This document shows positions 22 to 63,854 of a stretch of 64,000 bases of DNA, one piece after another. Location of the stretch: positions 9,199 through 73,198 of the forward strand of contig JAIRUP010000011.1 in assembly GCA_031254335.1 (NCBI GenBank), written 5' to 3'. The notes beneath the pieces were generated by a model that was given only the letters and a program-made list of their open reading frames with translations, was not told the DNA's origin and ran no database searches. The position numbers were made by a program, and so were the translations under genes. The stretch's first letter is position 1; each line of letters opens with the position of its first letter. This DNA comes from Rickettsiales bacterium. Lineage in GTDB: Bacteria; Pseudomonadota; Alphaproteobacteria; Rs-D84.

Positions 22-518
22 CTAAAAGTGGACGAGCGGGTCGGGATTGTCGATGGACCGAATCATGATGTTCATATCTTCCGTATCGCCGTATATGCGC
101 TGCTGGCACATATATTCGCAAGGCCAGTTGTAGGCTTTTTCAGTATCCAATCCAAGCTGGGCAAAGCTTTGTTCCTTGCAACTTGCCACGCAATATGGCG
201 TTCCCTGTCCCGCGCCAAGGCAGTATCTGTTCGCGCAAAAGTCGTCCAGGTCCTGTTGCGACGCAAGGCGGTGTTTCACCAAATATCCGCCATAGACATT
301 GGGTTGTCCGAACCGATTGTCGGAAGTTCTTCTAAGCATGCAAAAGCAGTTTAATCCGTCCCCGGCCGGGACAAGCTTTGTCAGCAGCTGGTATGTTTTG
401 CCGTCGGACCAGCCCATCATTAATCCGAAAGACGGAGTGGAAACAAGCGCGGATATTAAGAAAACGCGCAGAAATCTAGAGAGAGAGAGAGAGAGAGTTG
501 TAGGTTTGTGTATTTCAT
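22..518 (-). CDS. Cys-rich secreted protein, family member A (body frame 22..477; upstream ATG 518 out of frame across (CT)10)
   Basis: Track ORF 22..420 stays open upstream without ATG/GTG/TTG, through a signal-peptide-like RFLRVFLISALVSTPSFG, up to the repeat. ATG 518 is 41 nt (21+20) from that frame. Shares NCFC, FC..YC and CY..C cysteines and the C-terminal P.PLV(R/H)F with the ORFs at 15539 and 20164. Confidence 0.6.
478..497. repeat. (AG)10 = (CT)10 dinucleotide tract in the coding sense of gene A
   Basis: Read directly: tct(ag)10ttg. The + strand ORF 299..520 translates it as ERERER. Confidence 0.95.
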
Positions 519-524
519 AGTGTG

Positions 525-533
525 ATTATATCA
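525..533 (-). promoter_or_regulatory. Extended -10 element TGATATAAT, 6 nt upstream of ATG 518 (leaderless geometry)
   Basis: Minus strand reads tatgatataat-cacact-ATG. The same TATAAT-N6-start geometry occurs at 16057, 21890 and 35513. Confidence 0.45.
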
Positions 534-540
534 TAAAAAG

Positions 541-568
541 TAAGAAGTAAGAAGTAAGAAGTAAGAAG
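541..568. repeat. Tandem heptamer TAAGAAG x4
   Basis: Four perfect tandem copies read directly. In minus sense they lie immediately upstream of the gene A -10 element, covering the -35 region. Confidence 0.9.
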
Positions 569-571
569 GGG

Positions 572-591
572 TGTGTCTATTATAATAGACA
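572..591 (+). terminator. Perfect 20-nt palindrome GTGTCTATTATAATAGACAC followed by TTTTATTT
   Basis: Perfect inverted repeat plus T-rich run on the + strand. Same design as the hairpin at 50665..50680. No obvious + strand gene upstream, so its function is uncertain. Confidence 0.35.
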
Positions 592-597
592 CTTTTA

Positions 598-6587: not shown

Positions 6588-6839
6588 TTATTCATAGAGT
6601 TTGCAATAGACGGTTTCGTCTTCCTTCACCATGCTGGCGAAGGAATTGCCGCCGTCGGACATGACCTTGTCGTCGATTGCCCTGCAATCTTCCTTGGCCG
6701 TCGCCTCGTTGTTCATGCGGCATTTGCCGTCTTCGACCGTGCCGAACTGCTCGCAGGCTTCATTGAAATTCGGGTTGGCATACGCGACGCCGAACGACAT
6801 GGCGGCAACGACGGGAACGATTAAAAGTTTTTTGTTCAT
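6588..6839 (-). CDS. Small secreted Cys-containing protein (hypothetical)
   Basis: 83 aa, signal peptide MNKKLLIVPVVAAMSFGVAYA, 4 Cys, AAGGAG Shine-Dalgarno. N-terminal similarity to ORF 61358..61690. Confidence 0.6.
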   Translation of the reverse strand: MNKKLLIVPVVAAMSFGVAYANPNFNEACEQFGTVEDGKCRMNNEATAKEDCRAIDDKVMSDGGNSFASMVKEDETVYCKLYE

Positions 6840-6901: not shown

Positions 6902-7393
6902 CTAAGAACATTCCTCGTCGGACCAGCACTGGAACTGCGTCGCCAGGGACACGCTGAAATTGCCGTTCTTTTCCCGCCTTAGATACACCGAAAAATTCCG
7001 ATTGTCTTTCAGCGACATATCCACCCGCATATTCTTCCCTGTTTCGGGATTGAACACGCACGCCTTGTCGTCCGCGATTTCGCACAAATTCTTCCGCCTG
7101 TTCATATACAAATCGACAATCGTGTATTTATAGTCCTTGCCCGCCAGATACGACAGCGCGTTCTTCATGTCTTCCGAATATTTCAGGCCGACCTTTTTGC
7201 AAAGGTCCGGCTGGTTCCTTATCACGCACGCCACCACCGTATCGAACACGCACATCGGGTCGTCCGCGCGGCCCACGCACTCGCCGTCCTTCGGCGACAC
7301 CGACACGGTTCTTTCCGCGAAGTAGTTCTCGGCGGAGAACGCCGAAAAAGGAAGAAGGAAGAAGGCAGAAGCAAGAAGTAGTGATTTCATCAT
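6902..7393 (-). CDS. Secreted hypothetical protein
   Basis: 163 aa, signal peptide MMKSLLLASAFFLLPFSAFSA, several Cys. Lies 19 nt downstream of the M23 gene on the same strand. Confidence 0.6.
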   Translation of the reverse strand: MMKSLLLASAFFLLPFSAFSAENYFAERTVSVSPKDGECVGRADDPMCVFDTVVACVIRNQPDLCKKVGLKYSEDMKNALSYLAGKDYKYTIVDLYMNRRKNLCEIADDKACVFNPETGKNMRVDMSLKDNRNFSVYLRREKNGNFSVSLATQFQCWSDEECS

Positions 7394-7411: not shown

Positions 7412-8464
7412 TTATTGCTCATAAAGGCTTTCCGTGTCAATAAGTTGTCCGCCGTAATACAATTCGAAATGCACATGCTGCGCGACATGGTTCCCGTAAT
7501 GCGGACGCACATCCTGCGTCGTTCCGATTACTTCGCCCGCGCCGACATGGTCGCCCACATTCAGGCCGTCCCGCGCGCGGACATAAAGCATGCGCGCCTG
7601 GCTGCCGTTGTCGTTCTGTATAACCACCTGCGCCAAACTCGGGTCGCTTGCATACACACGCGAAATTCGGACAATTCGGCCGCTGAAAAACGAGGGCATC
7701 GCCGTTCCGGGCGCGGGCGGACGGCCACCCGGCATTATGTCCGTTCCCGCATGGTCGCGGTTGCCGTGTCCGCGCCTTGCGCCGATATGTCCGTCGCCTC
7801 CGCCCCATTGCGGGCCGCGGATGGCTATATTAAATCTGCGGATGACTTCAAGCGCGACTTCGCGCGCGCCGCTGTTCCAAAGAGGGGTATTTTCTATTGG
7901 AACGACCTGCCGCCTTTGGCCCGGGCGCACCGTTATGGATTCGGGATGGAAGCGATTGCCTTGGCGCGTAGTCGGGCGCGTCGGCCTTGCCGCCGCCGGT
8001 CTTTCGACTTCCGGCGCGATTTCGGCCCGGATGTCCGGGACCGTTCCCGCCGTCATCGCGCTTTCTATAAATCCGTCCGGCAATCTTATGTCCCCGGACA
8101 AGCGCACCACGCGGCGCACATCCTCCGCCGGGACTTTTATGCGGCGGCAGGCGATTTCCTCGAAATCATGCGCCGTGCCGTAAAGCACCGCCATAAGCGG
8201 CCTGATAAACGACAGGACAACGAACATCAAGGTGAGGTTCCGCAAATTGTTCACGATATTCATTTTCGAGCCGCGAATCAGCGCAATCGCCCAGCCCGCA
8301 AGCAGCAGGCCCGCGATTATATAAAGCAAAACCTGGAATTCGCCTAGAAACTCGAAAACGCTATTGATAAAGCAGCCGCGGTCGCTTACGAAAAAATCGC
8401 CGCCCACGATTTCGGCTTGGACCCCGCTTTCCCATAAATGCTGCAAGATTTGGTCGTTCGTCAT
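7412..8464 (-). CDS. Membrane-anchored M23 family metallopeptidase
   Basis: 350 aa. Two hydrophobic helices near aa 45-95. C-terminal M23 motifs HAGTD and HVHFE. Confidence 0.8.
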   Translation of the reverse strand: MTNDQILQHLWESGVQAEIVGGDFFVSDRGCFINSVFEFLGEFQVLLYIIAGLLLAGWAIALIRGSKMNIVNNLRNLTLMFVVLSFIRPLMAVLYGTAHDFEEIACRRIKVPAEDVRRVVRLSGDIRLPDGFIESAMTAGTVPDIRAEIAPEVERPAAARPTRPTTRQGNRFHPESITVRPGQRRQVVPIENTPLWNSGAREVALEVIRRFNIAIRGPQWGGGDGHIGARRGHGNRDHAGTDIMPGGRPPAPGTAMPSFFSGRIVRISRVYASDPSLAQVVIQNDNGSQARMLYVRARDGLNVGDHVGAGEVIGTTQDVRPHYGNHVAQHVHFELYYGGQLIDTESLYEQ

Positions 8465-14988: not shown

Positions 14989-15545
14989 AAGAGCTTTACA
15001 AGCTGGTGGAAGAGCAATCCAAGCATTACGACAAATATGAGAAAGTCTTCGAGGGGCAGACTTGGAAATACCACCTTAAACCCGTAATCGACAATGCGGT
15101 CAAGTTCGCCAAAGAGCGCGGAGGCGACGCCGAAGTCGTGGAAATCGCCGCGCTGTTCCACGACTGGGCGAATCTTGTGGATTTCGAGAAATACAGCGAG
15201 GTTCATCACATCGCCGGCGGCGATTTGGCCGAACCCATTCTCTTGCAAGCCGGTTATTCCCGGGACTTTATAGACAAAGTCAAAAAGTGCATTTTCGCCC
15301 ATCGCGGAAGCGTCGCGAAGAAAAAGGAATCCATAGAGGAAACATGCCTTGCGGACGCCGACGCAATCGCGCATATAGAGAATCTGTTCCAAATGATAAT
15401 GTGGATGGGACAATGCGGGCGGCCGATAGAAGAGGCGAACGAATTCCTTAAAGGCAAAATCACGCGCGATTTCGCTAAATTAAGCGACGCGGGCAAGGAT
15501 TATATCCGCGATAAATACGAAGCCGCGATGAAGATTTTTTATTGA
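14985..15545 (+). CDS. HD domain protein
   Basis: 186 aa. AALFHDWAN (HD motif) and a later H..D cluster. Start overlaps the Nudix stop. Confidence 0.7.
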   Translation: MKELYKLVEEQSKHYDKYEKVFEGQTWKYHLKPVIDNAVKFAKERGGDAEVVEIAALFHDWANLVDFEKYSEVHHIAGGDLAEPILLQAGYSRDFIDKVKKCIFAHRGSVAKKKESIEETCLADADAIAHIENLFQMIMWMGQCGRPIEEANEFLKGKITRDFAKLSDAGKDYIRDKYEAAMKIFY

Positions 15546-16050
15546 GGGTTGGGGCTGTCAAATCTGACCAGGGGCGATGGATTCGCGATTGAATCCGCCA
15601 TGTGCTTCAAGGCCGCCGGGTCTTTCGAGAACTTGTTGCACGCAACATAGCACGGACGCTCATGGATGTTCAGATTCGGATCATTTACGCAGGCACTAAT
15701 GCATGCGCCCATTCCCGGTCCGGGATTGTCTTCGCAGAATACGCTGCCGCAATAATATGTCCTATCATGTCCTGTTAGTTGTCCGGCATATACCATGAGG
15801 CCGCCGTATTGATTGAACTGTCCCGTCGCGCCGTCTTCGCGCTTCAATCTGCAAAAGCAGTTGTAGCCGCTTTTGTCATTTCCGCCTTCAAGACGGACAA
15901 TTATATGCTGGATACCGTATTTCGCGCCGTTATAAGTTATGTCGTATTCTCTTAATTCATAGGTGGCGAGGGCGGGGGACGATATTACGATTAGCGCGCA
16001 AACGCGCAGAAATCTAGAGAGAGAGAGAGTTGTAGGTTTGTATTCTTCAT
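15539..16050 (-). CDS. Cys-rich secreted protein, family member B (body frame 15539..16015; upstream ATG 16050 out of frame across (CT)7)
   Basis: The track ORF starts at TTG 15847, but the frame is open upstream through GYNCFC (family motif) and the signal-peptide-like RFLRVCALIVISSPALA to the repeat. ATG 16050 is 35 nt (21+14) from that frame. Confidence 0.6.
16016..16029. repeat. (AG)7 = (CT)7 dinucleotide tract in the coding sense of gene B
   Basis: Read directly: tct(ag)7ttg. The + ORF 15963..16259 translates it as ERER. Confidence 0.95.
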
Positions 16051-16056
16051 ATAAGG

Positions 16057-16065
16057 ATTATAGCA
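16057..16065 (-). promoter_or_regulatory. Extended -10 TGCTATAAT, 6 nt upstream of ATG 16050
   Basis: Minus strand reads TTGACC-N18-TATAAT-ccttat-ATG. The TTGACC lies inside the hairpin module at 16066..16110. Confidence 0.45.
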
Positions 16066-16110
16066 TTACCTGGGTTCTCGGGTCAAGCTCGACCATGACA
16101 ATTTTTATTT
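16066..16110. repeat. Intergenic hairpin module ATTACCTGG..TCGGGTCAAGC.CGACCATGACAATTTT
   Basis: Homologous to the reverse complement of 63855..63905 and to the split copy at 598..745. Stem GGTCGAG/CTCGGG-type around a TCAAGC loop. Confidence 0.5.
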
Positions 16111-18196
16111 ATCCTATCACTAGATTTTTGGAATTGGCGTCAAGGTCTACCATTCCGCCGGGCTTCGTTTTCCCGGACAGGATAAGGTCCGCGATTTTGT
16201 CCTCTACCTCCGTCATAATCAATCGCTTCAACGGGCGCGCGCCGAATGCCGGGTCATAGCCATGCTCGGCCAGCCATTCCACCGCGCGTTTCGATGTGTG
16301 AAGCGACAGGTTTTTTTCCTGCAACCGTTTTTCCAGATTGCCCAGCTGTATTTCCACAATGTCGTCCATGACTTTGCGCGAAAGCGGCTGGAACATTATG
16401 ACTTCGTCTATTCTATTCAGAAATTCCGGGCGCAGGCTGCGTTTAAGCAACGCCATCACCCCGTCCGTATCGTTCGGGTTTTCCAGCAGCAAATCAGAAC
16501 CCAGATTGGAAGTCATTATTATAATGGTGTTGGAAAAATTCACCGTGCGGCCCTGTCCGTCCGTAAGGCGGCCGTCGTCAAGGACTTGCAGCAGCACATT
16601 GAAGACATCGCGGTGCGCCTTTTCGATTTCGTCGAACAGCACGACCTGATACGGCCTTCTCCGCACGGCTTCGGTAAGCGCGCCGCCCTGCTCGTAGCCC
16701 ACATATCCCGGAGGGCTGCCGATTAGGCGCGACACCGAATGCGGCTCCATATATTCGCTCATGTCAATCCGCACCATCGCGGAATCGTCGTCGAACAAAA
16801 GTTCCGCGACGGCCTTCACCAGCTCGGTTTTGCCGACGCCGGTCGGCCCCAAAAACATGAACGAACCCTGCGGCCGCCTGCTGTCGGACAGGCCCGCGCG
16901 ACTGCGCCGGATGGCGCGCGCGATAACGCCAAGCGCGTTGTCCTGGCCCACCACGCGCTTCGCCAGCTCGCTTTCGATTTTCAATAATTTCGACTGCTCG
17001 TCTTCCGATAATTTTTGCACGGGTATGCCGGTCCATTTGGAAATCACCTGTTCGATATGTCGCGCGCCGACGGTTTTCAGGTCTTCGGAACTGTTCTTTT
17101 CAAGCCGCGCGATTTTCGCCGTCAGCTCCGGGATTTTTCCGTTCTGCAAGCCGCCCGCCGCCGCGTAATCGCCGCGCCGAACCGCGCTTTGCATTTCGGC
17201 CTTGGCCGCGTCAAGTTCCTCTATCGCGCCCGCCAGGCCCTTCATGTTTTCGCGCTCGGTCTTCCAGGCCGCGGTCATGGCCGCCGATTCCTTTTCGATT
17301 TCCGCGATTTGCTTTTCAAGCTCGGCCAGCCGTTTTTTAGAGTCGGCGTCCTTTTCCTTTTTCAACGCTTCGCGCTCTATCTTCATTTGCGTCAGGCGGC
17401 GGTCGGTTTCATCCAGCTTTTCGGGTTTCGACGCGATAACAATGCGGACGCGGGCGGCGGCTTCGTCAATCAAGTCAATCGCCTTGTCCGGCAGGAACCT
17501 GTCCGAAATGTATCTGTCCGACAGGCGCGCCGCCGCGACCAGCGCGGCGTCCGAAATGCGCACGCCGTGATGGCCTTCGTATCTTTCTTTTAGTCCCCGC
17601 AGAATCGAAATCGTGTCTTCCACCGTCGGCTCGTCCACGAAAACGGGCTGGAAGCGGCGCGCAAGGGCAGGGTCCTTTTCGATATACTCGCGGTATTCGT
17701 CTAGCGTCGTCGCGCCCATGCAATGAAGCTCGCCCCGGGCGAGCATGGGTTTCAGCATATTGCCCGCGTCCATTGCGCCTTCGGCTTTGCCCGCGCCGAC
17801 CACCGTATGAAGCTCGTCTATGAAAAGAATTATTTTGCCGTCGGAATCTTTGACGGCGTTAAGGACGCCTTTCAGCCGTTCCTCGAATTCGCCCCTGTAT
17901 TTCGCGCCCGCCGTCATCGCGCCCAAATCAAGCGACAGGATTTTTTTGCCCAGCAGGTTTTCCGGCACATCGCCCGAGACTATGCGGCCCGCAAGGCCTT
18001 CGGCGATGGCGGTTTTTCCGACGCCCGGCTGGCCGATTAAAACGGGGTTGTTCTTGGTGCGGCGGGTCAGGACCTGAATCGCGCGCCGAACCTCGTCGTC
18101 GCGGCCGATTACCGGGTCAAGTTTTCCCTTCGCGGCAAGCGCGGTAAAGTCCGTCGTGAATTTTTCAAGCGGGTTTATATTTTCATGTTCTTCCAT
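16109..18196 (-). CDS. clpB: ClpB-type AAA+ disaggregase lacking the N-terminal domain
   Basis: About 695 aa from [14 protein letters not shown] (GAGG Shine-Dalgarno 5 nt upstream). Two Walker A motifs ([16 protein letters not shown]) and a coiled-coil M-domain. The sequence begins where NBD1 normally begins ([20 protein letters not shown]). Confidence 0.9.
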
Positions 18197-18240
18197 TTGC
18201 GCCTCGTTTTGATTTATTTTATCAAAAATACCACGCCTTA

Positions 18241-18269
18241 TAAATAGGGAACCAATCCGCCTTGTCAAG
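18241..18269 (-). promoter_or_regulatory. Sigma-32-like heat-shock promoter CTTGACA-N13-CCCTATTT upstream of clpB
   Basis: Minus strand reads cttgacaaggcggattggttccctattta, about 45 nt upstream of ATG 18196. Resembles the RpoH consensus CTTGAAA-N13-15-CCCCATnT. Confidence 0.5.
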
Positions 18270-20163: not shown

Positions 20164-20619
20164 GTGAAAAAAATCATAAGCAAAAAAATCTTTTTTTTCG
20201 CGGCGGCCGCCGCCATATTCGCGGCGCAAGGGCAATGCTTCGCCGCAAACGACTATGAAATCAAATATAGGATGGTGGAAATCGGCGGCGGATACAACTG
20301 CTTTTGCGGCCTTGAAAGAAAATCGGACGGCAAAACAGGCGGATTCAACCAATACGGCAAATTCATACCCAAGCTCAATCTTGCGGCAATGACCCAAAAT
20401 GAACTAGAATCATTCTGCGGCACACAATATTGCGAAGGATTAGTAGGCCAAAGTAATGGCTATTGCATGCAAGATTGCACAAACGGGCGTCCAAAGGTTT
20501 TTCCCAAATTAGAAGACCGGGTTTGTTATGTCCAGTGCAATAAGTTCGAGAAAAATACCGATGCCATGGAATTTATGAAGGGTTCCATAGACCTGCCTAA
20601 TCCGCTTGTCCGGTTTTGA
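20164..20619 (+). CDS. Cys-rich secreted protein, family member C (intact)
   Basis: 151 aa. Signal peptide MKKIISKKIFFFAAAAAIFAAQGQCFA, then YNCFCGLERKSDGKTGGFNQYG, FC..YC, YC..C, CY..C, ending PNPLVRF. Confidence 0.75.
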   Translation: MKKIISKKIFFFAAAAAIFAAQGQCFAANDYEIKYRMVEIGGGYNCFCGLERKSDGKTGGFNQYGKFIPKLNLAAMTQNELESFCGTQYCEGLVGQSNGYCMQDCTNGRPKVFPKLEDRVCYVQCNKFEKNTDAMEFMKGSIDLPNPLVRF

Positions 20620-20629
20620 CATTCGATTT

Positions 20630-21883
20630 TTATTTGCTTAAATAATTCACGGGGTTCAGAGCGCGGGTGCCTTGGCGAAGCTCGAAGTGAAGCTGCGGGC
20701 TGGATACCTTGCCCGTCGCGCCCGCGCTTCCGATTTTCGCGCCGCGCGCGACCGTTTTGCCGCGCTCGACCAGTATCGTGTCAAGGTGTGCATAGACCGT
20801 CATGAAATTGTCCGCGTGCTTTATGATGACCAAGTTCCCAAGGCCCTTGATTTCGTTCCCGGCGTATGCGACGACGCCGTTCTCCGCCGCCGACACGGGG
20901 TCGCCGCGCACGGCCTTGATATTGATTCCGTCGTTGTAAAGCCCGTTCGATTTCGCGCCGAATTCCGACAGGATTATGCCATGCAAGGGCCAGGCGAATT
21001 TCTTCGCAGAGCGCGGCGGGACTTTTGGAAGGCTTGAAACACTGGCCGGCTTTTTCACGGCGATTGGCTGGGCTGTTGGAGTTGGTTCGGTTTTTTGACC
21101 CCCCACCGAAACCGGCGTTTCAGCCGGTTTCGACTCCCCCGCAAGGGGGGAGTTAGCAGGGGGTGTATCCGCAATGGGGGAGTTATTTGTTAATTGAATC
21201 TGGGCGGGAAGGACAAGTTTTTGGCCGACGCTTAATGCGAACGGCTCCTTCAAATCGTTCATTTGCGCGAGGCTGTTCAAGTCCATTTGGTAAAGCCGCG
21301 AAATCGAATAAAGCGTTTCGCCCTTCGCAACCGTATGCACGAACTGGCTTGGCAAAAACAGCCGGCGGCCCGGGTTCAGCGCATAGGGCGGTTCCAGCTT
21401 GTTCGCCGTGATAAGGTCGCGCAGCGGGACATTGTGCTTACGCGACAGGCTGTAAAGGGTGTCCCCGGCCGCGACGGTTATAATGCTTTGCTGTTGCGGC
21501 ACTGTTTGGACCGGCGCGGGAGCTTCGGCGCGCTTCGGCACAATCAGCACATCGTCTTCGCCGCCGTCTTCCTTCGCCACGGGAACGGGCGGGGCGGGCG
21601 GGTCATAGTCCGACAATTTCCCGGTCGTGTAATAGTCCGATTTCGCGGAAGTGTTCACAGGTTTTTGGACTTGCGCCAGTTGTTGATAGTCCGAGATTTT
21701 TCCGGTTTCGTATTTAGGTTTTTCGGAATAGGGATTCGCCCAGAAACTTCCGGCCCCGCCTTCGTCCGCCTTCACTTCGTTACGGCGCGACTCCGGCGCG
21801 GCGGGTTTGCCGGTAATCGATTCCCGTATGTCGCACGCGGTTGTCAAAAACAGTGCCGCCAAAGCGACCATGACCTTTTTCAT
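20630..21883 (-). CDS. nlpD: LysM-LysM-M23 murein hydrolase activator/peptidase lipoprotein (NlpD-like)
   Basis: 417 aa. Lipobox LFLTTAC; two LysM repeats (ITVAAGDTLYSLSRKHNV.., HTVAKGETLYSISRLYQM..); C-terminal M23 domain (GINIKA.., LHFELRQG). Confidence 0.85.
   Translation of the reverse strand: MKKVMVALAALFLTTACDIRESITGKPAAPESRRNEVKADEGGAGSFWANPYSEKPKYETGKISDYQQLAQVQKPVNTSAKSDYYTTGKLSDYDPPAPPVPVAKEDGGEDDVLIVPKRAEAPAPVQTVPQQQSIITVAAGDTLYSLSRKHNVPLRDLITANKLEPPYALNPGRRLFLPSQFVHTVAKGETLYSISRLYQMDLNSLAQMNDLKEPFALSVGQKLVLPAQIQLTNNSPIADTPPANSPLAGESKPAETPVSVGGQKTEPTPTAQPIAVKKPASVSSLPKVPPRSAKKFAWPLHGIILSEFGAKSNGLYNDGINIKAVRGDPVSAAENGVVAYAGNEIKGLGNLVIIKHADNFMTVYAHLDTILVERGKTVARGAKIGSAGATGKVSSPQLHFELRQGTRALNPVNYLSK
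21099..21155. repeat. Double-hairpin palindromic element inserted in frame in the nlpD-like gene
   Basis: ccccccaccGAAACCGGcgtttcaGCCGGTTTCgaCTCCCCCgcaaGGGGGGAGtta. It encodes ANSPLAGESKPAETPVSVGG in the linker between the LysM and M23 domains. Confidence 0.85.
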
Positions 21884-21889
21884 ATCAAT

Positions 21890-21898
21890 ATTATATCA
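21890..21898 (-). promoter_or_regulatory. Extended -10 TGATATAAT, 6 nt upstream of the nlpD-like ATG 21883
   Basis: Minus strand reads tatgatataat-attgat-ATG. Confidence 0.45.
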
Positions 21899-22044
21899 TA
21901 AAATAAAGGAAGATGGAAGAAGGCAGAAGGAAGGGGCCGGGGGTGACGATATGGGGAAGGGCCCGGGGGGGGGTGACACATTATTTTATGCTTGCCTTGG
22001 CCGCTTGAAACTTGCTAATCTTCAAGAATAGAAGGGAGAATTTC

Positions 22045-24146: not shown

Positions 24147-24152
24147 GGAGGG

Positions 24153-24311
24153 ACAAAAAATCCAAACTCGGTTTTTCGTTTTCGGATTAAATCCCCGAAT
24201 GACACATCGAAAAACCACCCGTCGCGGCGGCGTTACAGGCCAGACGCCGGGTGGTTTTTCTTGGTCCTCGACGATTTCCTCTCGAAAACGCGACCTCGCT
24301 AGGATTTTTTG
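24153..24311 (+). repeat. Extended hairpin element E1 (~150 nt) plus T-tract, between the virB9-like and virB10-like genes
   Basis: Outer arms AAAAAATCC/GGATTTTTT, conserved blocks TTTTCGTTTTCGG and CTCGAAAACGCGA, central 13-bp stem GAAAAACCACCCG/CGGGTGGTTTTTC, then TTTTTTGAG. Confidence 0.65.
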
Positions 24312-24335
24312 AGTTATTTATAAGGCAAGGCAGAA

Positions 24336-26666: not shown

Positions 26667-26820
26667 AAAAATGAAAGTGCAATGTTTCAAAATCGGTCTA
26701 TATCGCCCATTATCTTCGCAAAACCGACGCCTCGCGGACGCATCAGTCCAGACTCGGGTCGGTTTTGCTGGATTCCGGGCAATCTATCCTCGATTTTGCG
26801 ATTGCACTAACATTTTTTTG
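26667..26820 (+). repeat. Extended hairpin element E2 plus T-tract, directly after the virB10-like stop
   Basis: Arms AAAAAAATG/CATTTTTTT, GTGCAAT/ATTGCAC and CAAAATCGG/CCTCGATTTTG, central GCAAAACCGAC/GTCGGTTTTGC. Compensatory changes relative to E3. Confidence 0.7.
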
Positions 26821-26851
26821 AACTTATAATATATAAGAAGGAGTGCTTGAA

Positions 26852-28885: not shown

Positions 28886-29755
28886 ATGAGCGACGCAATT
28901 TTCATAGACATCGGGTCAAGCACCATCAAGGTTTATTCCAAATCCGCGGACGGCGCGCTGGATTTGACCGACGAAAAATCGATTCTTTTCAAGGACGGAT
29001 TCACGCAGGACGCCGGCGTCGCGGCGCACAATATAGACGCGCTGCTGGAATACTTGGAACAATGGCGCGGGCGGAATGTCCGAACTTTCGCAACGGGAAT
29101 TTGGCGCGAGCTCCCGGCCGCGCAGGCGAAAAGCCTTGGCGAAAACAGCCCCGTCGGATTCAATATAATTTCGCACGACGACGAGGCGCGCTATCTGAAA
29201 CAGGCCGCGGACCTGCCGTTCGCCGGCAAGAAGGCAATGGTTATAAACATGGGCGGCAAAACCACAGAAATCGTTTCCGTTCTGCCAAACTTTGATACCA
29301 AGACGCAGCTCTTAAAAATCGGCGTCGCGGACTTGCTGAACCAATTCCCGAATGTGAACGAGGAAATCTCCGGCGCGAGCATCGAAGAGATGGAAAAATT
29401 CGTCCGCGACAAACTGGACGCCGAACAATTCGACACCGATTACGACTTCGCGCTTTTCACGGGCGAGCTGCGGTTCGAGAAGCTGTCCGGCTATCCATTG
29501 GAACCGAACGCGCAGTTTTCCGAAGCCAACCATCCGTTCCAAGTTTCAATCGACGGCTTCATCATTGGCACGCGCAGGATATTCTTCGACATGACGATGT
29601 CGGAACTTCGCGCGCTTATGCCGAAAAATCCAAACTGGATGAGCGGCGCGCGGCCTGGCGCGGTTCTTCCGCTTGCGATTTTCAACCGCGCGAAAATCAA
29701 AGCCATCGTTCCCAGCGACTTGAATCTTATCAACGGAGTTGTCAAAGATTTCTAA
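28886..29755 (+). CDS. ASKHA-superfamily (Ppx/GppA- or actin-like ATPase) protein
   Basis: 289 aa. The N-terminal phosphate-1 motif FIDIGSSTIKVY and a later NMGGKTTE resemble Ppx/GppA-type nucleotide-binding folds. Confidence 0.5.
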   Translation: MSDAIFIDIGSSTIKVYSKSADGALDLTDEKSILFKDGFTQDAGVAAHNIDALLEYLEQWRGRNVRTFATGIWRELPAAQAKSLGENSPVGFNIISHDDEARYLKQAADLPFAGKKAMVINMGGKTTEIVSVLPNFDTKTQLLKIGVADLLNQFPNVNEEISGASIEEMEKFVRDKLDAEQFDTDYDFALFTGELRFEKLSGYPLEPNAQFSEANHPFQVSIDGFIIGTRRIFFDMTMSELRALMPKNPNWMSGARPGAVLPLAIFNRAKIKAIVPSDLNLINGVVKDF

Positions 29756-32700
29756 AATCTGTAAGATATTCCGGCGCGGGCGTTGAAGCCGTTTATCTCG
29801 TCGCTTGACCGCAAGGAAAACTTCGCGTCCAAAGTCAAAGATTCGCGGACGCTTCCGACCATTCCGAAACCATATTCGAAATACGAGCCGACCATTCCCA
29901 ATTTCGGCTGCTCCATTTCGCCGATTCTGTTTTTGGAGTCGCCGGACAGGTTCCAATTATAAAGCCCGGAAAGAAAAACATTCACCGATTCCATCCCGAA
30001 TATCAGCGCAAGGCCCGGCGCGACATTCGCGCCGTCCACATAGCTTGAATACATTTCTATATCGCCGTAATTCGACATCCATTCGCGCCCGCCGAAGTGG
30101 TTGTAAGACGCCATAAAATTCGGCTGGACAATCGTGTATCTCATCACGCGCATGTCATAGGCGATTTTTCCCGCCGCGCCGACGAACCAGTTGTCGACGG
30201 AATCCTTCGCGCCCCCGACATCAATCTCGGTGTTATAGAATCCGTTATACGCCATAAGCGCGCCGATGAATTTCCCGTTCGTCCAGGTGCTTTGGATTCC
30301 GATTTGCCCGCCGTTCTGCGTCATTTCGACGCCGCTCCATCTCTGTTTGCCGCCGTTATAGGCCATGTAGAGCGTCGGCACCCATCGCCAGCTTTTTTCC
30401 CCGCCAATCAGGACGGACGCGGTGTCCAGGCCCGCGATTATTCCGTATAAATTGCTGTCCGCCTCGTCCAAGCCGCCGCCAAGTTTCAGTTTTTCCGCGC
30501 CGCCATAGGCCTTGACCCAGACGCCCTTCTGGTGTTCCTGGAACTGCCACGGCGCATACTTGCACATCAGGCATTCGTCGCTGTCAAGGAACACATGGTC
30601 GAACATGACGCCCGCGACAAGACCCTGCGACAGCATCATCGCGTTCGTCGATACCCCGCCGCGCAAGGCCTGCGGATTTCCGCCTTGCAGCCGAAGCTCG
30701 TAATTTCCGCTTCCAAGCGACACAAGCGAATATTCCCCCGCCGGAGTCATTATGGAATCCGCCGACGCCGCGAACATAATCGCGGGGTCGTAGTTCGGCG
30801 AGCTCATTATATTGAACGGCACGACCGCCGAGCGCGGAGAATTCAGCAAATTGATTTCATCCAGCATGACAACCGCGTCCATCGCGTAAATGTCGGCTAT
30901 GCCCGACGCCGGGTCGCCGTTCACTATCAATTCGCCCGGCGCCGCCGTTCCGCTGAAAACAAACTGGTCGGAGCGCGCGTTCCGCGCGTCCAAATCCACC
31001 GAGAATTTCGCAATGCTGTTCACCGGATTGTCCAAGACCGAAAAGATTGCGAACTTGCCCGCGAAATTGTGCGTTTGGATTGCTCCGTCCATCGAATTCA
31101 CAAGCGCGTTGTCGCCCATGACAAGCGCGCCGCTGGTTGCGATGTATGTTCCGCCGCCCGCGCCGACATTAAGGGCGACATTGTTTATGAACAGCGTGGA
31201 ATCCGACAGGACCAAGTCGCCGCCCGTAAGTCCGCCGCTTGGCGCAAGGCCTTTGACATAGGCGACCGCGTTGTTGCCGATTACCGTGACTCCGCCCGTT
31301 TTTTGCAGCACATCCGAATAGACGGCAAGCCCCGCGCCCCGGGCGACAATATAACCGTCGCTTTGATTGACTTTGCCGAATGTTCCGCCCGACGACGCGG
31401 GCATGGAATCGGTCGGATTCAGCCAAATCGCGCCGCCCGCGATGTCCAGGAATCCCGTCGAATACAGATTAATCGTCGCCGATTCCCCGATTATGTCGCC
31501 CGGATTCAACTTCAAGCCGCCGTATATGTTGACGGTGCCGCCGGTTATGTTCATGACCGCGCTGTCCAGCTTGTCGGCGTTCAGATGCCAGTTCAGGATT
31601 CCGCTTTGGATGTTGTTCGTTCCGCCGAAGAACATTCCGTAAGCATCGACGATTCCATTGGTCTGCAAGAATTCGCCGAGATAGTTCGAGTTGTCCGCCG
31701 ATTCCGCCAATATGAAATCCGCCGGACTATGCTTGGCGATTAGCGCGCCGGCCGTTCCCGCAATGCCGCTGCCGAAGAACAGAATCCCGCCGGTGGAAAT
31801 CAAGGTTATCGTTCCCGCGTTGTATATGTCGTTCGCGCCGGTGCTGTCGGCATTCCCGCTGAAAATCATGTTCGCGCCCTGCGCGACGCTTATGTCCAGC
31901 TGGCTTCCCGCCGCGTTGTAAATCGCGCCGCCAAGGCCGCCCGCCGTATTGCCCGTGAAGTTCATGTCGTGGTCGCCCGAATATATCGCCGTGGTTTCGG
32001 ACGAACTTGACGAGTCGTGGTAAATCGCGCCGCCGTTCCCGCCCGCGCTGTTTCCGACGAAGGAACCGCCGTGCTTGTTTATAGTCCCCGTATTGTAAAT
32101 CGCGCCGCCGTCGCCGCCCGCGGAATTATTCGTGTAATCCAGATTGGTGCTTGTCGTGCTTCCCGCCGCGATGTTCGCCGCGCCGCCGTTCCCGGTCGAG
32201 CTGTTGTTTTGCAGCGCAAGGTTCGAAAGCGTCGCGCTTGAACTTGCGTTGTCCATATAGATGACCGCGCCGCCGCGGCCGGAAGAATCCAAGGCGTCCC
32301 GAACGGTCAAATCCTGCAATGTGAAATATGTATCGTCGTTCTCGATGTCGAACAGGGACTGCCCGGTTTCGCCGTCCGTCGAATTCAATCCCGACAGAAC
32401 GGCCGTTCTTGTTCCGGCAACCGCGCCATGGACCGAGAATGTCCCGTCGGCCATAACTCCCAAATCCCCGTCGTTCTGATAAATTTCCGCCGCGCCGATT
32501 TGCCACGAGCGCGCGACCGCGTCCGACATCCCGGCCGCCGCCGCATTCGAATCAAGCTCGTTCACATCGTTCAGCACAAGGACAAGGGACGACGGATTGT
32601 TCGGAACGCTAATCATTCCCGTCGATGTCCCGCCCGGATTCGTAGTCGTCGAGGCCGTGCCGCCGTTAGGGTCGGTCGTGCTTGAACCGCCGCCGTTCGG

Positions 32701-35496
32701 GTCCGTGGTCGTAGTGGTCGAGCCGCCGCCGTTCGGGTCGGTCGTGTTTATCGTCGTGTCGCCGCCGGGATTCGTGTTTATCGTTGTGCCGCCGCCGCTT
32801 GGCGGGACTATGGTCGTGGTCGTTCCGCCGTTCCCATCCGGGCCCACATCGACCGTCGTGCCGTCGGGCAGGGACGCGCTTCCGCTGCCGCCCGCCGGGA
32901 CATCGACGACCGTTCCGCCCGGCTCGCTTGTTATGGTGCTGTTTCCGTCCGGGTCGGTCACAACCGTTATCGTGTTGCCCGCGCCGTCGTCCGTCGTGCT
33001 TGCGGAGCTTCCGTCGGGATTCGTCGTCGTAGTCGTCGTGCTTCCGTCCGGGTTCGTCGTGGTCGTAGTCGCGCCGCCGCTCGGGTCGGTCGTCGTAGTC
33101 GTGGTTCCGCCGCCCGGATTGTTCGTGGTCGTCGTCGTGCCGCCGCCGGAATCCACGGCGGACGAAGAGCTTCCCGAACCGCCCCCGCCGCTGGGCACGC
33201 TGTCAAGCTGGACATACTGGTTGTTCACGGTCGTAATCGTGTATGTTCCGTTGGAAGTCGCGACGAACTGCGACAAGCCGTTTTGGAAATCCAGGACATC
33301 GCCGTATATTATGCGCATGGTTCCGGTAATAAGGCCGTCCGCGTCATTCACATAAATTTTCCCCAGATAATTTATCGTGCCTCCGCCGTTCGCGACATTC
33401 AGCGAGTCCGCCGAAAGCCCGCCCTGGTTATTTCCGATTTTGAACGAAAGCGACGCGGTCGCGTCGGCCCCAAGATTCAAGAAATTATACTGCTGGTAAT
33501 TCGCCGACGAATTCGCAAGGTCTATAAGCGAGCCGTTGTAAAAACCGTAAGCCGTGCCGCCGGTATAATCGGCGCTTCCCAATATGACGCCGCTATTATT
33601 GAAGCCGATAGAGTTCGACTGCCCGTTCGATATGTCGTTTTGCAGATTGTAAAGCGCGCCGCCCGGCATGCCCGCATTGAATCCGACCGTCGCGCCGCTT
33701 CCCATGAAATTTATGCCCGCGTCCGCGATGGCCGCGGCCCGGCTTATGGAAATCCTGTTGCTGGACACGGCCGTGAAGTTCATGGCCGAATCCGACAGCA
33801 TATCGGCGTTGAAATAGAATGTATCCTGGCTGCTGCTTACATTCGCCGTGCCGCCGATATTGTTTTGCCCGCCGAACATAAGGCCCTGAACATTGACGAC
33901 GGCCCCGGCCGCATTGTTGAAGACTCCCGCGAAGCCCGTGCTTTGACTGGCCGCGTTCAGGTTCAGGGTGGTGCCGGATTCCTGATTTATGGTTCCTATG
34001 CCCGCGATTCCGTCGTTTATGTTCACGGTGCCGCCGCCGGTTATGTTTATGGCGGCGGTCGCCGAATCCTGGTATATTCCGGGGCCGTTCGCAAAACCCG
34101 CCGCATAATTGTTCAGGAAATTTATTCCGCTTGCGCCGGTATTCAGATTAATCACTCCGTTCCCGGAATTGTAAATCGCACCGCCGAACAACGCGCCGTT
34201 CGCGTCGAACAATGTCCCGTCCGCTATGTTCACGACGCTTGTCCCCGGATAATTGTTCCCGGAAGTATTGTAAATCGCGCCGCCGCCACCGCTTGCATAG
34301 TTGTTCGTGAAGCTGCCTGAAATATTTACGACTATATCGGCCTGGCCCGCCTGGATATTGTTGTAAATCGCGCCGCCGAATCCGGCCGACTTGTTGCTGT
34401 CGAACGGCCCCGATATATCGAATGTTATATTTCCGCCGTAAGGCGAATACTGGTCGCCGACCGCATTGTAAATCGCGCCGCCCTGCGCCGCTACATTGGA
34501 ATAGAACGAGCCGACCAAATTCACATTAACGGCGGTGTTTCCGCCGTTTATTTCGGTCGCAACCGCGCCGCCGAACGCGGCCTGGTTCTGTGTGAAGACG
34601 CCGCCCGCAATATCGAAATTGTTCGCGGCGGGGGCGTTTCCATTCAGGACTCCGTTATAAACCGCGCCGCCCATGCCGGCCGCATAATTCTGGTAATAGG
34701 TATAGCCCTGTGCGCTGAAATCGTTCGACACGCCCGCGCCGCCCGCGTTATTGCCCATGAAATAAATCGCGCCGCCGTTCTGGGACGCCCTGTTCATCGC
34801 CAGATAATGCCCGTTCGTCCCGGTGTCGTCCACAACCGCAAATGTTCCGCCGCCGTTCTGCGAATTGTTCGACGCCATATAGACCGCGCCGCCGCTTGCC
34901 GCGGCATTGTTTGCGAAGTCGTTGTCGGTCAGAACATACGAATTGTCGCCGCCGCTTTGCATTTGGGAATTCACGGACACCGCCGCGCCGTTCGCAGACG
35001 ACGAGTTGTTATAGAAATAAGTTCCCGCGACCGTAAAATTATGATTGCCAATACCGTTTCCCGCAAATGCAACCGCGCCGTTCGCCGCGCCATAGACCGT
35101 AAGATTCGAGATGCTCGCGCTTATGTCGTTATTCCAGCCGGGCGCGAAGGCAAGGGTATATCCCCCCATAATCAGCGCGGTTCCGTCCGGCGTTCCTCCA
35201 TAACTGTTTATGCTTAGGGCGGGGCCGGAAAACGGATTCAGCGCGTTCGCCAGAATTATTCCGTAATCGCCTTTGGAATCGATGGCGGTTCCGACGACCG
35301 TTATCGAGCCATCGCCGCCGTTCCACGCGTCCGCAAAGTCCGCGGAAGTCGCGGCATCCGCCGCGTCCGCCGCGCGGACCAAGCAAAAACATACCATGCC
35401 CGACAATAATACGGCCGAGAATCTCATGATTAATAATATAAAAAAACGGCGCGGAATTTTATAGGTAGCTATTCTCAGATTAATTTCCCTTTCCAT
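29752..35496 (-). CDS. Autotransporter adhesin with polymorphic-membrane-protein (PMP) repeats
   Basis: 1914 aa. Dozens of GGA(I/V)Y(N) and FxxN motifs. Central Thr/Gly/Asn/Pro-rich block (TTTTTNPDG-like repeats). C-terminal beta-barrel ending ISYRF. The signal peptide probably starts at Met-24 (35427). Confidence 0.85.
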   Translation of the reverse strand: MEREINLRIATYKIPRRFFILLIMRFSAVLLSGMVCFCLVRAADAADAATSADFADAWNGGDGSITVVGTAIDSKGDYGIILANALNPFSGPALSINSYGGTPDGTALIMGGYTLAFAPGWNNDISASISNLTVYGAANGAVAFAGNGIGNHNFTVAGTYFYNNSSSANGAAVSVNSQMQSGGDNSYVLTDNDFANNAAASGGAVYMASNNSQNGGGTFAVVDDTGTNGHYLAMNRASQNGGAIYFMGNNAGGAGVSNDFSAQGYTYYQNYAAGMGGAVYNGVLNGNAPAANNFDIAGGVFTQNQAAFGGAVATEINGGNTAVNVNLVGSFYSNVAAQGGAIYNAVGDQYSPYGGNITFDISGPFDSNKSAGFGGAIYNNIQAGQADIVVNISGSFTNNYASGGGGAIYNTSGNNYPGTSVVNIADGTLFDANGALFGGAIYNSGNGVINLNTGASGINFLNNYAAGFANGPGIYQDSATAAINITGGGTVNINDGIAGIGTINQESGTTLNLNAASQSTGFAGVFNNAAGAVVNVQGLMFGGQNNIGGTANVSSSQDTFYFNADMLSDSAMNFTAVSSNRISISRAAAIADAGINFMGSGATVGFNAGMPGGALYNLQNDISNGQSNSIGFNNSGVILGSADYTGGTAYGFYNGSLIDLANSSANYQQYNFLNLGADATASLSFKIGNNQGGLSADSLNVANGGGTINYLGKIYVNDADGLITGTMRIIYGDVLDFQNGLSQFVATSNGTYTITTVNNQYVQLDSVPSGGGGSGSSSSAVDSGGGTTTTTNNPGGGTTTTTTDPSGGATTTTTNPDGSTTTTTTNPDGSSASTTDDGAGNTITVVTDPDGNSTITSEPGGTVVDVPAGGSGSASLPDGTTVDVGPDGNGGTTTTIVPPSGGGTTINTNPGGDTTINTTDPNGGGSTTTTTDPNGGGSSTTDPNGGTASTTTNPGGTSTGMISVPNNPSSLVLVLNDVNELDSNAAAAGMSDAVARSWQIGAAEIYQNDGDLGVMADGTFSVHGAVAGTRTAVLSGLNSTDGETGQSLFDIENDDTYFTLQDLTVRDALDSSGRGGAVIYMDNASSSATLSNLALQNNSSTGNGGAANIAAGSTTSTNLDYTNNSAGGDGGAIYNTGTINKHGGSFVGNSAGGNGGAIYHDSSSSSETTAIYSGDHDMNFTGNTAGGLGGAIYNAAGSQLDISVAQGANMIFSGNADSTGANDIYNAGTITLISTGGILFFGSGIAGTAGALIAKHSPADFILAESADNSNYLGEFLQTNGIVDAYGMFFGGTNNIQSGILNWHLNADKLDSAVMNITGGTVNIYGGLKLNPGDIIGESATINLYSTGFLDIAGGAIWLNPTDSMPASSGGTFGKVNQSDGYIVARGAGLAVYSDVLQKTGGVTVIGNNAVAYVKGLAPSGGLTGGDLVLSDSTLFINNVALNVGAGGGTYIATSGALVMGDNALVNSMDGAIQTHNFAGKFAIFSVLDNPVNSIAKFSVDLDARNARSDQFVFSGTAAPGELIVNGDPASGIADIYAMDAVVMLDEINLLNSPRSAVVPFNIMSSPNYDPAIMFAASADSIMTPAGEYSLVSLGSGNYELRLQGGNPQALRGGVSTNAMMLSQGLVAGVMFDHVFLDSDECLMCKYAPWQFQEHQKGVWVKAYGGAEKLKLGGGLDEADSNLYGIIAGLDTASVLIGGEKSWRWVPTLYMAYNGGKQRWSGVEMTQNGGQIGIQSTWTNGKFIGALMAYNGFYNTEIDVGGAKDSVDNWFVGAAGKIAYDMRVMRYTIVQPNFMASYNHFGGREWMSNYGDIEMYSSYVDGANVAPGLALIFGMESVNVFLSGLYNWNLSGDSKNRIGEMEQPKLGMVGSYFEYGFGMVGSVRESLTLDAKFSLRSSDEINGFNARAGISYRF

Positions 35497-50634: not shown

Positions 50635-50664
50635 TTTTATAAATACCCGCATCGTTTATAAAGC

Positions 50665-50690
50665 GTCCATTATAATGGACACTTTATTTT
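50665..50690 (+). terminator. Palindromic hairpin GTCCATTATAATGGAC plus T-rich run
   Basis: Read directly, 30 nt after stop 50634. Same design as 572..591. Confidence 0.55.
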
Positions 50691-60644: not shown

Positions 60645-61299
60645 AATAAAAAACCTGAGCGCGTCCGCGGGGGACAAAAAAATCATAAGCGGTTTTTCGA
60701 TGTCAATCGCGGACGGCGAAACCCTTGTCCTTCGCGGAAAAAACGGAATCGGCAAATCGACGCTGGCCGCCGCCGTCATGAACGACCCGGCGTTCCATAT
60801 AACGGCGGATGAAATCAAATTCGACGGGCGCGATTTGTCGCTGGATTCCGCGACGACCCGAGCGTTGCTTGGCATTTATTACGCGCCGCAGAACGCGCCG
60901 GAAATTCCAGGCCTTACGCTTTCGTCCTTTTTCAAGCATTCCATGAACGCGCGGAAAAAAGTGAGCGACAAGCAGGAAATTTCCGCCGGAGAATTCTTCG
61001 AGAAGCTGAACGCCGCGCGTTCAAGCCTGGACATTCCCGAAAGCTGGCTCGCGCGCAGCGTCAATGTCGGATTTTCCGGCGGCGAAAGAAAGCGCGCCGC
61101 GCTTCTCGGCCTGAAACTCGCCTCGCCGAAACTCGCCATACTGGACGAGATAGACGCGGGCGCGGACGCAAGCCTCCAAAAACTAATCGCCGGAACAATA
61201 AACGAAATGCGCGCGGCTGGGACTTCGTTTTTAATCATCTCGCACCAGGAAAACTTCATAAAGCTGCTGGACAATCCCCGCACGGTGAATTTATTATGA
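60637..61299 (+). CDS. sufC: Fe-S cluster assembly ATPase SufC
   Basis: 220 aa. Walker A GKNGIGKST, ABC signature FSGGERKR, Walker B ILDEIDAG. Confidence 0.9.
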   Translation: MLEIKNLSASAGDKKIISGFSMSIADGETLVLRGKNGIGKSTLAAAVMNDPAFHITADEIKFDGRDLSLDSATTRALLGIYYAPQNAPEIPGLTLSSFFKHSMNARKKVSDKQEISAGEFFEKLNAARSSLDIPESWLARSVNVGFSGGERKRAALLGLKLASPKLAILDEIDAGADASLQKLIAGTINEMRAAGTSFLIISHQENFIKLLDNPRTVNLL

Positions 61300-63695: not shown

Positions 63696-63698
63696 GGA

Positions 63699-63851
63699 CA
63701 AAAAATATAAGCGCAATTTTTCGTTTTCGGTCTAAATCGCCCACTACCGGCGGGAAACCGGCTTCGCAGGAGCGGCAAGCCTAGCGCGCGCCGGTTTCCC
63801 TTGGTATTGAACGATTTATCCTCGAAAACGCGATTGCGCTAATATTTTTTG
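63699..63851 (+). repeat. Extended hairpin element E3 plus T-tract, directly after the PBP1A stop
   Basis: Arms AAAAAATAT/ATATTTTTT, GCGCAAT/ATTGCGC and CGTTTTCGG/CCTCGAAAACG, central GGGAAACCGG/CCGGTTTCCC, then TTTTTTGAG. Confidence 0.7.
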
Positions 63852-63854
63852 AGT

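Follow-up and report, generated by a model that had tools for sequence, protein, structure and literature searches.

Paired CT-repeat tracts in the signal-peptide codons of two divergent Cys-rich orphan genes point to probable phase variation in an uncultured proteobacterial lineage

Two members of a small Cys-rich protein family, gene A and its paralogue B, each carry a CT dinucleotide tract inside the codons of a predicted signal peptide, and in the assembled consensus both tracts (n = 10 in A, n = 7 in B) leave the gene OFF with an equal offset. We consider it probable, from their organisation, that A and B are simple-sequence contingency loci under slipped-strand phase variation. The anatomy of the tracts, their frame arithmetic, the conservation of the module that surrounds them and the orphan status of the family can be read directly from the DNA of the window, by which we mean the whole 64,000-nucleotide stretch analysed. 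This genome is known from one public contig of 73 kb and from the Logan k = 31 contigs of a single run (SRR14710927, an accession that no indexed paper mentions), and the window is chromosomal, with genes for GAPDH, PurL, MnmE, ClpB and Ldh/Mdh.

Results

A CT tract separates the gene A start codon from an intact body

Read on the minus strand, gene A presents in order the promoter element TGATATAAT (533..525), the spacer CACACT, an ATG at 518..516, six codons, (CT)10 and the codon AGA at 477..475. The features of the locus are the following.

573..592, no strand assigned: perfect 20-nt palindrome GTGTCTATTATAATAGACAC, 5' of the gene A promoter, with one weaker copy at 50663..50682
534..568, minus: heptamer array (CTTCTTA), four perfect copies and one degenerate, abutting the gene A -10 box
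525..533, minus: extended -10 box TGATATAAT, 6 nt 5' of the ATG, leaving no room for a Shine-Dalgarno sequence
498..518, minus: start ATG (518..516) and six leader codons AAA TAC ACA AAC CTA CAA (515..498), MKYTNLQ
478..497, minus: (CT)10 tract, encoding LS repeats if in frame; n = 10 is OFF
462..477, minus: 16-nt flank AGATTTCTGCGCGTTT, with the same letters in paralogue B
456..458, minus: TAA terminating the 20-codon ATG frame at n = 10
22..477, minus: body of 151 codons, the signal-peptide remainder RFLRVFLISALVSTPSFG followed by a mature Cys-rich domain of about 130 aa with the C-terminal motif SIDNPxPLV(R/H)F

The frame that begins at AGA is open to a stop at 24..22 and is closed upstream by a TAA at 528..526, which lies within the TATAAT box. 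Between that TAA and the tract the body frame contains no ATG, GTG or TTG, and its first canonical start past the tract is the ATG at 420..418, beyond the signal peptide. The tract begins 21 nt after the ATG and the distance from ATG to AGA is 41 nt, which places the body, at n = 10, in the -1/+2 frame relative to the ATG; the product of the ATG frame at this length is MKYTNLQLSLSLSLDFCAFS (stop TAA 458..456). The initial annotation had described the (CT)10 tract, the closed upstream frame, the 20-codon ATG ORF and the 41-nt distance, and on our reading of the minus strand each of these, with its coordinates, was confirmed. Its expectation that n = 9 or n = 12 would fuse the ATG to the body likewise agrees with an in-silico frame table, in which the frame is restored at either number.

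The heptamer array at 534..568 is a possible second, transcriptional repeat switch. The gene A promoter region (513..571) shares 71% identity over 59 nt with the promoter of a LysM/M23 lipoprotein gene (21878..21936), in which the heptamers are degenerate, and because this degenerate version sits at a housekeeping-like gene, the array may instead be an ordinary promoter element. The palindrome GTGTCTATTATAATAGACAC is possibly an operator, or a bidirectional terminator downstream of the Ldh/Mdh gene. A further 'heptamer repeat' reported by Tandem Repeats Finder at 7344..7378 was rejected as merely the Leu/Phe-rich signal-peptide coding sequence of a 163-aa protein.

A second copy of the module lies in a divergent paralogue

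A tblastn search of the 64-kb window with the gene A body located two paralogues, B (16015..15539, minus) and C (20164..20619, plus). Paralogue B holds a second copy of the switch module, which was absent from the initial annotation.

16057..16065, minus: paralogue B extended -10 box TGCTATAAT, 6 nt 5' of the ATG (spacer CCTTAT)
16030..16050, minus: paralogue B ATG (16050..16048) and leader MKNTNLQ (AAG AAT ACA AAC CTA CAA), the last 12 nt identical to gene A
16016..16029, minus: paralogue B (CT)7 tract; n = 7 is 1 mod 3, OFF in the same frame as gene A
15539..16015, minus: paralogue B body, 158 codons and a stop, opening with the 16-nt flank of gene A
20164..20619, plus: paralogue C, in frame and without a CT tract

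As in gene A, the tract of paralogue B begins 21 nt after the ATG; past (CT)7 the module reads on as AGA TTT CTG CGC GTT T..., and the body frame has no canonical start until TTG 15847, deep in the body. The module core common to the two genes is ACAAACCTACAA(CT)nAGATTTCTGCGCG, and the gene-specific sequence flanking the tract is ...TTTTCTTAATATCC for A and ...TTTGCGCGCTAATCG for B. A and B match at 100% of the 12 nt leading into the tract and of the 16 nt that follow it, compared with 44% nucleotide and 30% amino acid identity over the other 135 aligned codons, which argues that the switch region is kept homogeneous by selection or gene conversion. All three proteins (3/3) conserve eight Cys residues, together with a C-terminal motif SI(D/A)xPxPLV(R/H)F. 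As the bodies of A and B are intact and retain the eight Cys and this motif, the tract is the sole lesion in either gene.

The signal-peptide codons of paralogue C, in the first 36 nt of the gene, contain A7, A7 and T8 runs (20167..20198), so that 3 of the 38 homopolymers of at least 7 nt in the window fall within 32 nt; through these runs paralogue C may have a homopolymer-based switch of its own.

In silico, A and B read in frame only at repeat numbers divisible by three

In the frame table, A and B are both ON only at n = 3, 6, 9, 12 and 15. With n = 1 mod 3, either gene is translated up to a TAA 6-7 codons past the tract, and with n = 2 mod 3 up to a TAG formed at the CT|AGA junction. Both OFF frames thus stop 0-7 codons past the tract and yield products of just 10-23 aa, and a change in repeat number in silico moves A as well as B from a complete protein to premature termination or back.

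Tandem Repeats Finder and a regular-expression scan found two CT/AG tracts of at least 4 units in the window, both at the homologous site of A and B. Under a first-order Markov model, 64 kb is expected to contain 7e-5 such tracts of at least 7 units and 6e-9 of at least 10 units; tracts of this length are far beyond chance. Neither a (CT)6 or longer tract nor a family member was present in 80 loci around ClpB homologues of other proteobacteria, including the closest of them, from the rumen MAG RUG11692 (ClpB 69% identity), and the exact module pattern with a tract of variable length had 0 matches in GTDB species representatives and JGI metagenome contigs, so that these collections yielded no second allele and no variant in repeat length.

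Promoter spacing points to translation from the ATG

The arrangement TGNTATAAT-N6-ATG occurs exactly at three sites in the window, namely A, B and the unrelated LysM/M23 lipoprotein gene (start 21883, minus), and tolerating one mismatch raises the count to 4, where 0.57 would be expected. Five signal-peptide genes (21883, minus; 27446, plus; 35427, minus; 35525, plus; 58650, minus) have a TATAAT-like box 5-8 nt ahead of their start codons, and there is no Shine-Dalgarno sequence before the ATG of gene A or B. The spacing of the -10 box suggests that the A and B transcripts are probably leaderless, with the AUG as their 5' end, in which case an alternative start is unlikely; that the -10-to-start spacing of A, B and the LysM/M23 gene recurs in similar form at other signal-peptide genes argues that the ATG is fixed as the start. 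By the same pattern, secreted proteins of the host organism may commonly be translated from leaderless mRNAs. Termination at the end of the 20-codon ORF followed by reinitiation was considered and rejected, since no body-frame start codon lies near the stop.

Reconstructed in frame, A and B have a long n-region, MK.TNLQ(LS)nRFLR, followed by a hydrophobic core and, by inspection, small residues at -3/-1. In gene A the core is VFLISALV and the cleavage site S-F-G|L; in paralogue B inspection gives K2/R12/R15, VCALIVISS and cleavage at A-L-A|T (...SSPALA|TYE). A Tat signal was suggested by the SRFLR motif and rejected, as the single R provides no twin arginine and no Tat model matched.

The family has no detectable relatives

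The initial annotation had called the family uncharacterised, and the searches bear this out: A, B and C have no Pfam or NCBIfam match and no sequence match in the PDB, and no relative appeared in protein sets. An A/B/C profile run against 5.8e9 protein clusters retrieved just the window's own gene A fragment, and an exhaustive HMMER scan of 1.84e9 representatives gave no relative beyond that fragment; three extra matches in the latter scan were tandem-repeat proteins with summed weak scores and were rejected on reading. The family profile had no tblastn-confirmed relative among metagenome contigs, and exact-protein look-ups for the products of gene A and paralogue C returned no match. An AlphaFold2 model built from the three-sequence alignment was of low confidence (pLDDT 61), and Foldseek gave no PDB hit below E = 0.27, which is no fold match. 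A beta-barrel outer-membrane protein, which the C-terminal Phe might indicate, was rejected on account of the small size of the protein (about 130 aa) and the helical prediction for its C-terminal half.

In public protein sets gene A is represented by truncated calls of 105 aa (P0001) and 132 aa (P0002), and B and C are absent; public gene callers cut B off at a contig end and left C uncalled in the Logan contig that spans it. With A, B and C truncated or missed in this way, such families become nearly invisible in protein databases.

Genomic context and other repeats in the window

A type IV secretion cluster (VirB8, CagX (VirB9) and TrbI (VirB10)) adjoins paralogue C. The ClpB homologue (16109..18268, minus) directly precedes paralogue B; its closest match, at 69% identity, is from the rumen MAG RUG11692, and the other close matches are from alphaproteobacterial MAGs at 60-65%, which places the host as a deeply branching proteobacterium, probably of the Alphaproteobacteria. 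The homologue is only 695-719 aa long and may lack the N-terminal domain, a typical ClpB having roughly 860 aa, about 140 aa more than the homologue in the window.

Several further observations concern repeats and secreted proteins elsewhere in the window. A G9 run at 21965..21973 (C9 on the minus strand), the longest homopolymer of the window and of equal length in a Logan contig (L083), lies between the LysM/M23 gene (21883, minus) and the virB8-like T4SS operon (22012 onward, plus) and is a candidate tract for promoter phase variation. An intergenic repeat of about 80-160 nt occurs in 3-4 copies with 61-80% identity (24151..24314, 26744..26822, 63696..63854 and, partially, 60672..60717), and two of its copies flank the TrbI/VirB10-like gene. 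An ORF of 1914 aa (29752..35496, minus), with the signal peptide MRFSAVLLSGMVCFCLVRAA from a start at 35427, contains many internal DNA repeats and has no Pfam match; judged from these features its product is likely a giant surface or adhesin-like protein. Two small secreted Cys-containing orphans with no Pfam or NCBIfam match (6588..6839 and 6902..7393, both minus) lie beside an M23 peptidase-domain protein (7412..8464, minus).

Logan contigs end at the shared module

The Logan contigs fragment around both tracts. One of them (L082, 12617..16024) ends inside the paralogue B tract, another (L084, 16016..19947) ends at the last base of (CT)7, and a third (L081, 607..6556) ends just 5' of the gene A promoter, at a position (607) that the graph of the window does not predict. 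Because a 30-mer is common to A and B, contigs from a k = 31 graph of the window alone would be expected to break at 16029 and 16000. The observed ends fall 5 and 16 nt earlier, and the k-mers that are absent, 21 in all, make up a 51-nt core, 15995..16045. Heterogeneity in unit number would account for the end at 16016 and not for that at 16024, so that length heterogeneity is neither a unique nor a full explanation of the pattern. Another sequence sharing the core in the reads, such as a further paralogue or a variant haplotype, would explain both ends, and the pattern indicates that at this module the reads contain more than the sequence of the window. Assemblers thus break contigs at switch modules that are shared between genes.

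Discussion

A model for repeat-controlled export

In order to rationalise these features we propose a model in which the extended -10 promoter of A and of B would each drive a leaderless mRNA with the AUG at its 5' end. Behind the AUG come six codons and then (CT)n, which falls in the n-region of a predicted Sec-type signal peptide. During replication, slipped-strand mispairing would lengthen or shorten the tract by CT units. Whenever n is a multiple of 3, one open frame would lead from the AUG through RFLRV, the hydrophobic core and the cleavage site into the mature 8-Cys protein, which would then be exported; at n = 1 mod 3 translation would end at the TAA 6-7 codons past the tract, and at n = 2 mod 3 at the junction TAG. 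Paralogue C would be constitutively in frame. Leaderless transcription, switching by repeat length and export of the protein are in this model predictions from the arrangement of the genes. That Logan, an independent assembler, interrupts its contigs right at the tract is a further point in favour. The proposal of the initial annotation that repeat number controls translation gains the frame logic, the second module in paralogue B and the leaderless-type promoter; actual switching remains a probable reading of these.

Alternative readings of the OFF consensus

One objection to this model is that the repeat numbers are artefacts of assembly or consensus, with the true n in frame or a mixed population collapsed, and the genes simply ON. 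There is one data set, in which the Logan contigs fragment at the tracts, and n = 10 of gene A comes from one assembly. Against this, n = 7 of paralogue B was reproduced by another assembler (Logan L084 holds the full (CT)7), tracts of 14-20 nt lie well inside the read length, two independent errors with an equal frame offset are improbable, and a mixed population would itself amount to phase variation; we therefore regard an artefact as unlikely. Somewhat less probable again is decay, in which the family is disappearing and frameshifts in slippery tracts have inactivated the genes for good. That A and B are both out of frame, that the family has no relatives and that public gene callers give truncated ORFs would all fit pseudogenes. 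Yet no other lesion is found in 151 and 158 codons, the Cys residues and the C-terminal motif are kept, promoter, ATG, tract and flanks are perfectly preserved despite 30% amino acid identity elsewhere, and the repeats are perfect and uninterrupted, contrary to the effect of decay, which together make decay very unlikely. A constitutive non-canonical start past the tract, for example the CTG at 471..469 in A and 16009..16007 in B, would turn the ATG and the tract into an irrelevant element or a regulatory mini-ORF. The CTG is conserved in both genes and gives a plausible short signal peptide (MRVFLISALV... or MRVCALIVISSPALA), and the pyrimidine-rich tract could conceivably act as an S1-binding enhancer. 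However, bacteria very rarely start translation at CTG, this one has no Shine-Dalgarno-like sequence ahead of it, the position of the -10 box 6 nt from the ATG means that the mRNA probably begins at the AUG, and the CTG falls inside the fully conserved 16-nt flank, so that its conservation is not specific. Of the readings considered here we give this one the least credence.

The other alternative is programmed recoding, with n = 1 mod 3 as the functional state and the body reached by a ribosomal -1/+2 frameshift or by RNA polymerase slippage on (CU)n, resulting in constitutive or regulated low-level expression. The OFF frame shared by A and B counts against switching in that it could hint at recoding, and chance would produce it in about half of both-OFF cases; from two genes it is not statistically significant. 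The tract flanks are conserved at the nucleotide level, a short GC hairpin begins 8 nt past the tract in both genes, and a U_UUC site past the tract could re-pair in the -1 frame. But the hairpins are not stabler than shuffled sequence (z = -1.2, -0.9) and take different shapes in the two genes, no X_XXY_YYZ slippery heptamer occurs in or past the tract, and CUC/UCU tRNAs re-pair poorly after a -1 shift. To our knowledge, transcriptional slippage in the elongation phase is well documented on long A/T runs but not on dinucleotide repeats. As in dnaX, IS transposases and prfB, the start and the body lie in different frames with a repetitive tract at the junction; unlike these, A and B have neither a slippery heptamer nor a significant stimulatory structure, and unlike in programmed frameshift genes the tracts of A and B differ by whole codons, as drifting repeats predict. 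Recoding is in our view improbable, a little more so than an artefact of assembly, and slipped-strand phase variation remains the explanation we favour.

Relation to known contingency loci

The dinucleotide unit, which the initial annotation had implied to be novel, has well-known precedents: CT repeats in the 5' signal-peptide codons of Helicobacter pylori oipA (hopH), sabA, sabB, hopZ and babA/B form a slipped-strand mispairing switch, and oipA alleles carry 5-11 CT units (PMC10564699, PMC3960876). A and B resemble these Hop genes in the CT unit, its location in the signal peptide, the LS coding, the frame-based on/off logic, a similar n and the presence of a tract in each paralogue, and sabA also has a promoter repeat that parallels the heptamer array 5' of gene A. 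Unlike the Hop beta-barrels, the A/B/C product is small (about 130 aa), has 8 Cys and shows no homology to them (no Pfam or NCBIfam match, none in the sets of 5.8e9 and 1.84e9). Its host is probably alphaproteobacterial and not epsilonproteobacterial, the promoter and start are of leaderless type, and the tract flanks are identical between very divergent paralogues. Unlike that of the Hop genes, the switching of A and B is a prediction from sequence.

The opa genes of Neisseria are multi-copy, carry (CTCTT)n in their signal-peptide codons, have most copies OFF and conserve the leader among paralogues. A and B likewise belong to a multi-copy family with repeats inside signal-peptide codons, but the repeat is a dinucleotide and not a pentamer, Opa is an 8-stranded beta-barrel, and no homology was found. 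A and B would thus work like Hop or Opa contingency genes and are members of neither protein family. For the heptamer array of gene A (534..568), a parallel exists in Haemophilus influenzae hmw1A/hmw2A, where 7-bp tandem repeats in the promoter grade expression (PMC8262952, PMC2424069). In both cases the repeats lie just 5' of the core promoter of a gene for a secreted or surface protein, whereas the gene A array touches the -10 region, has 4-5 copies only and is known from one sequence. The mechanism is therefore not new; novelty lies in the lineage of the host, in a protein family without relatives, in the leaderless-type setting and in a cassette conserved between very divergent paralogues.

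A bolder extension, which we put forward tentatively and consider rather doubtful, is that the cassette (promoter, AUG, 18 nt, (CT)n and 16-nt flank) is a portable switch module, homogenised by gene conversion across a larger divergent Cys-rich family with more copies perhaps lying beyond the window, at which the 51-nt core absent from the Logan contigs would hint. Together with the heptamer array and the homopolymer runs of paralogue C, it would then generate combinatorial variation of the secretome in a T4SS-bearing, probably gut-associated lineage from which contingency loci are not known. More radical still would be the alternative that A and B are expressed from their common n = 1 mod 3 state, by recoding at a dinucleotide repeat.

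Implications

For annotation, the lesson of these loci is that gene callers hide families of this kind and that assemblers break at the switch modules they share. If switching is true, contingency loci in the style of H. pylori and Neisseria would extend to an uncultured proteobacterial lineage and to an orphan family of small, disulfide-rich secreted proteins. The A and B proteins, which may act on the cell surface or as part of the secretome, would then be probable targets of fluctuating selection, be it by host immunity, phage or competitors.
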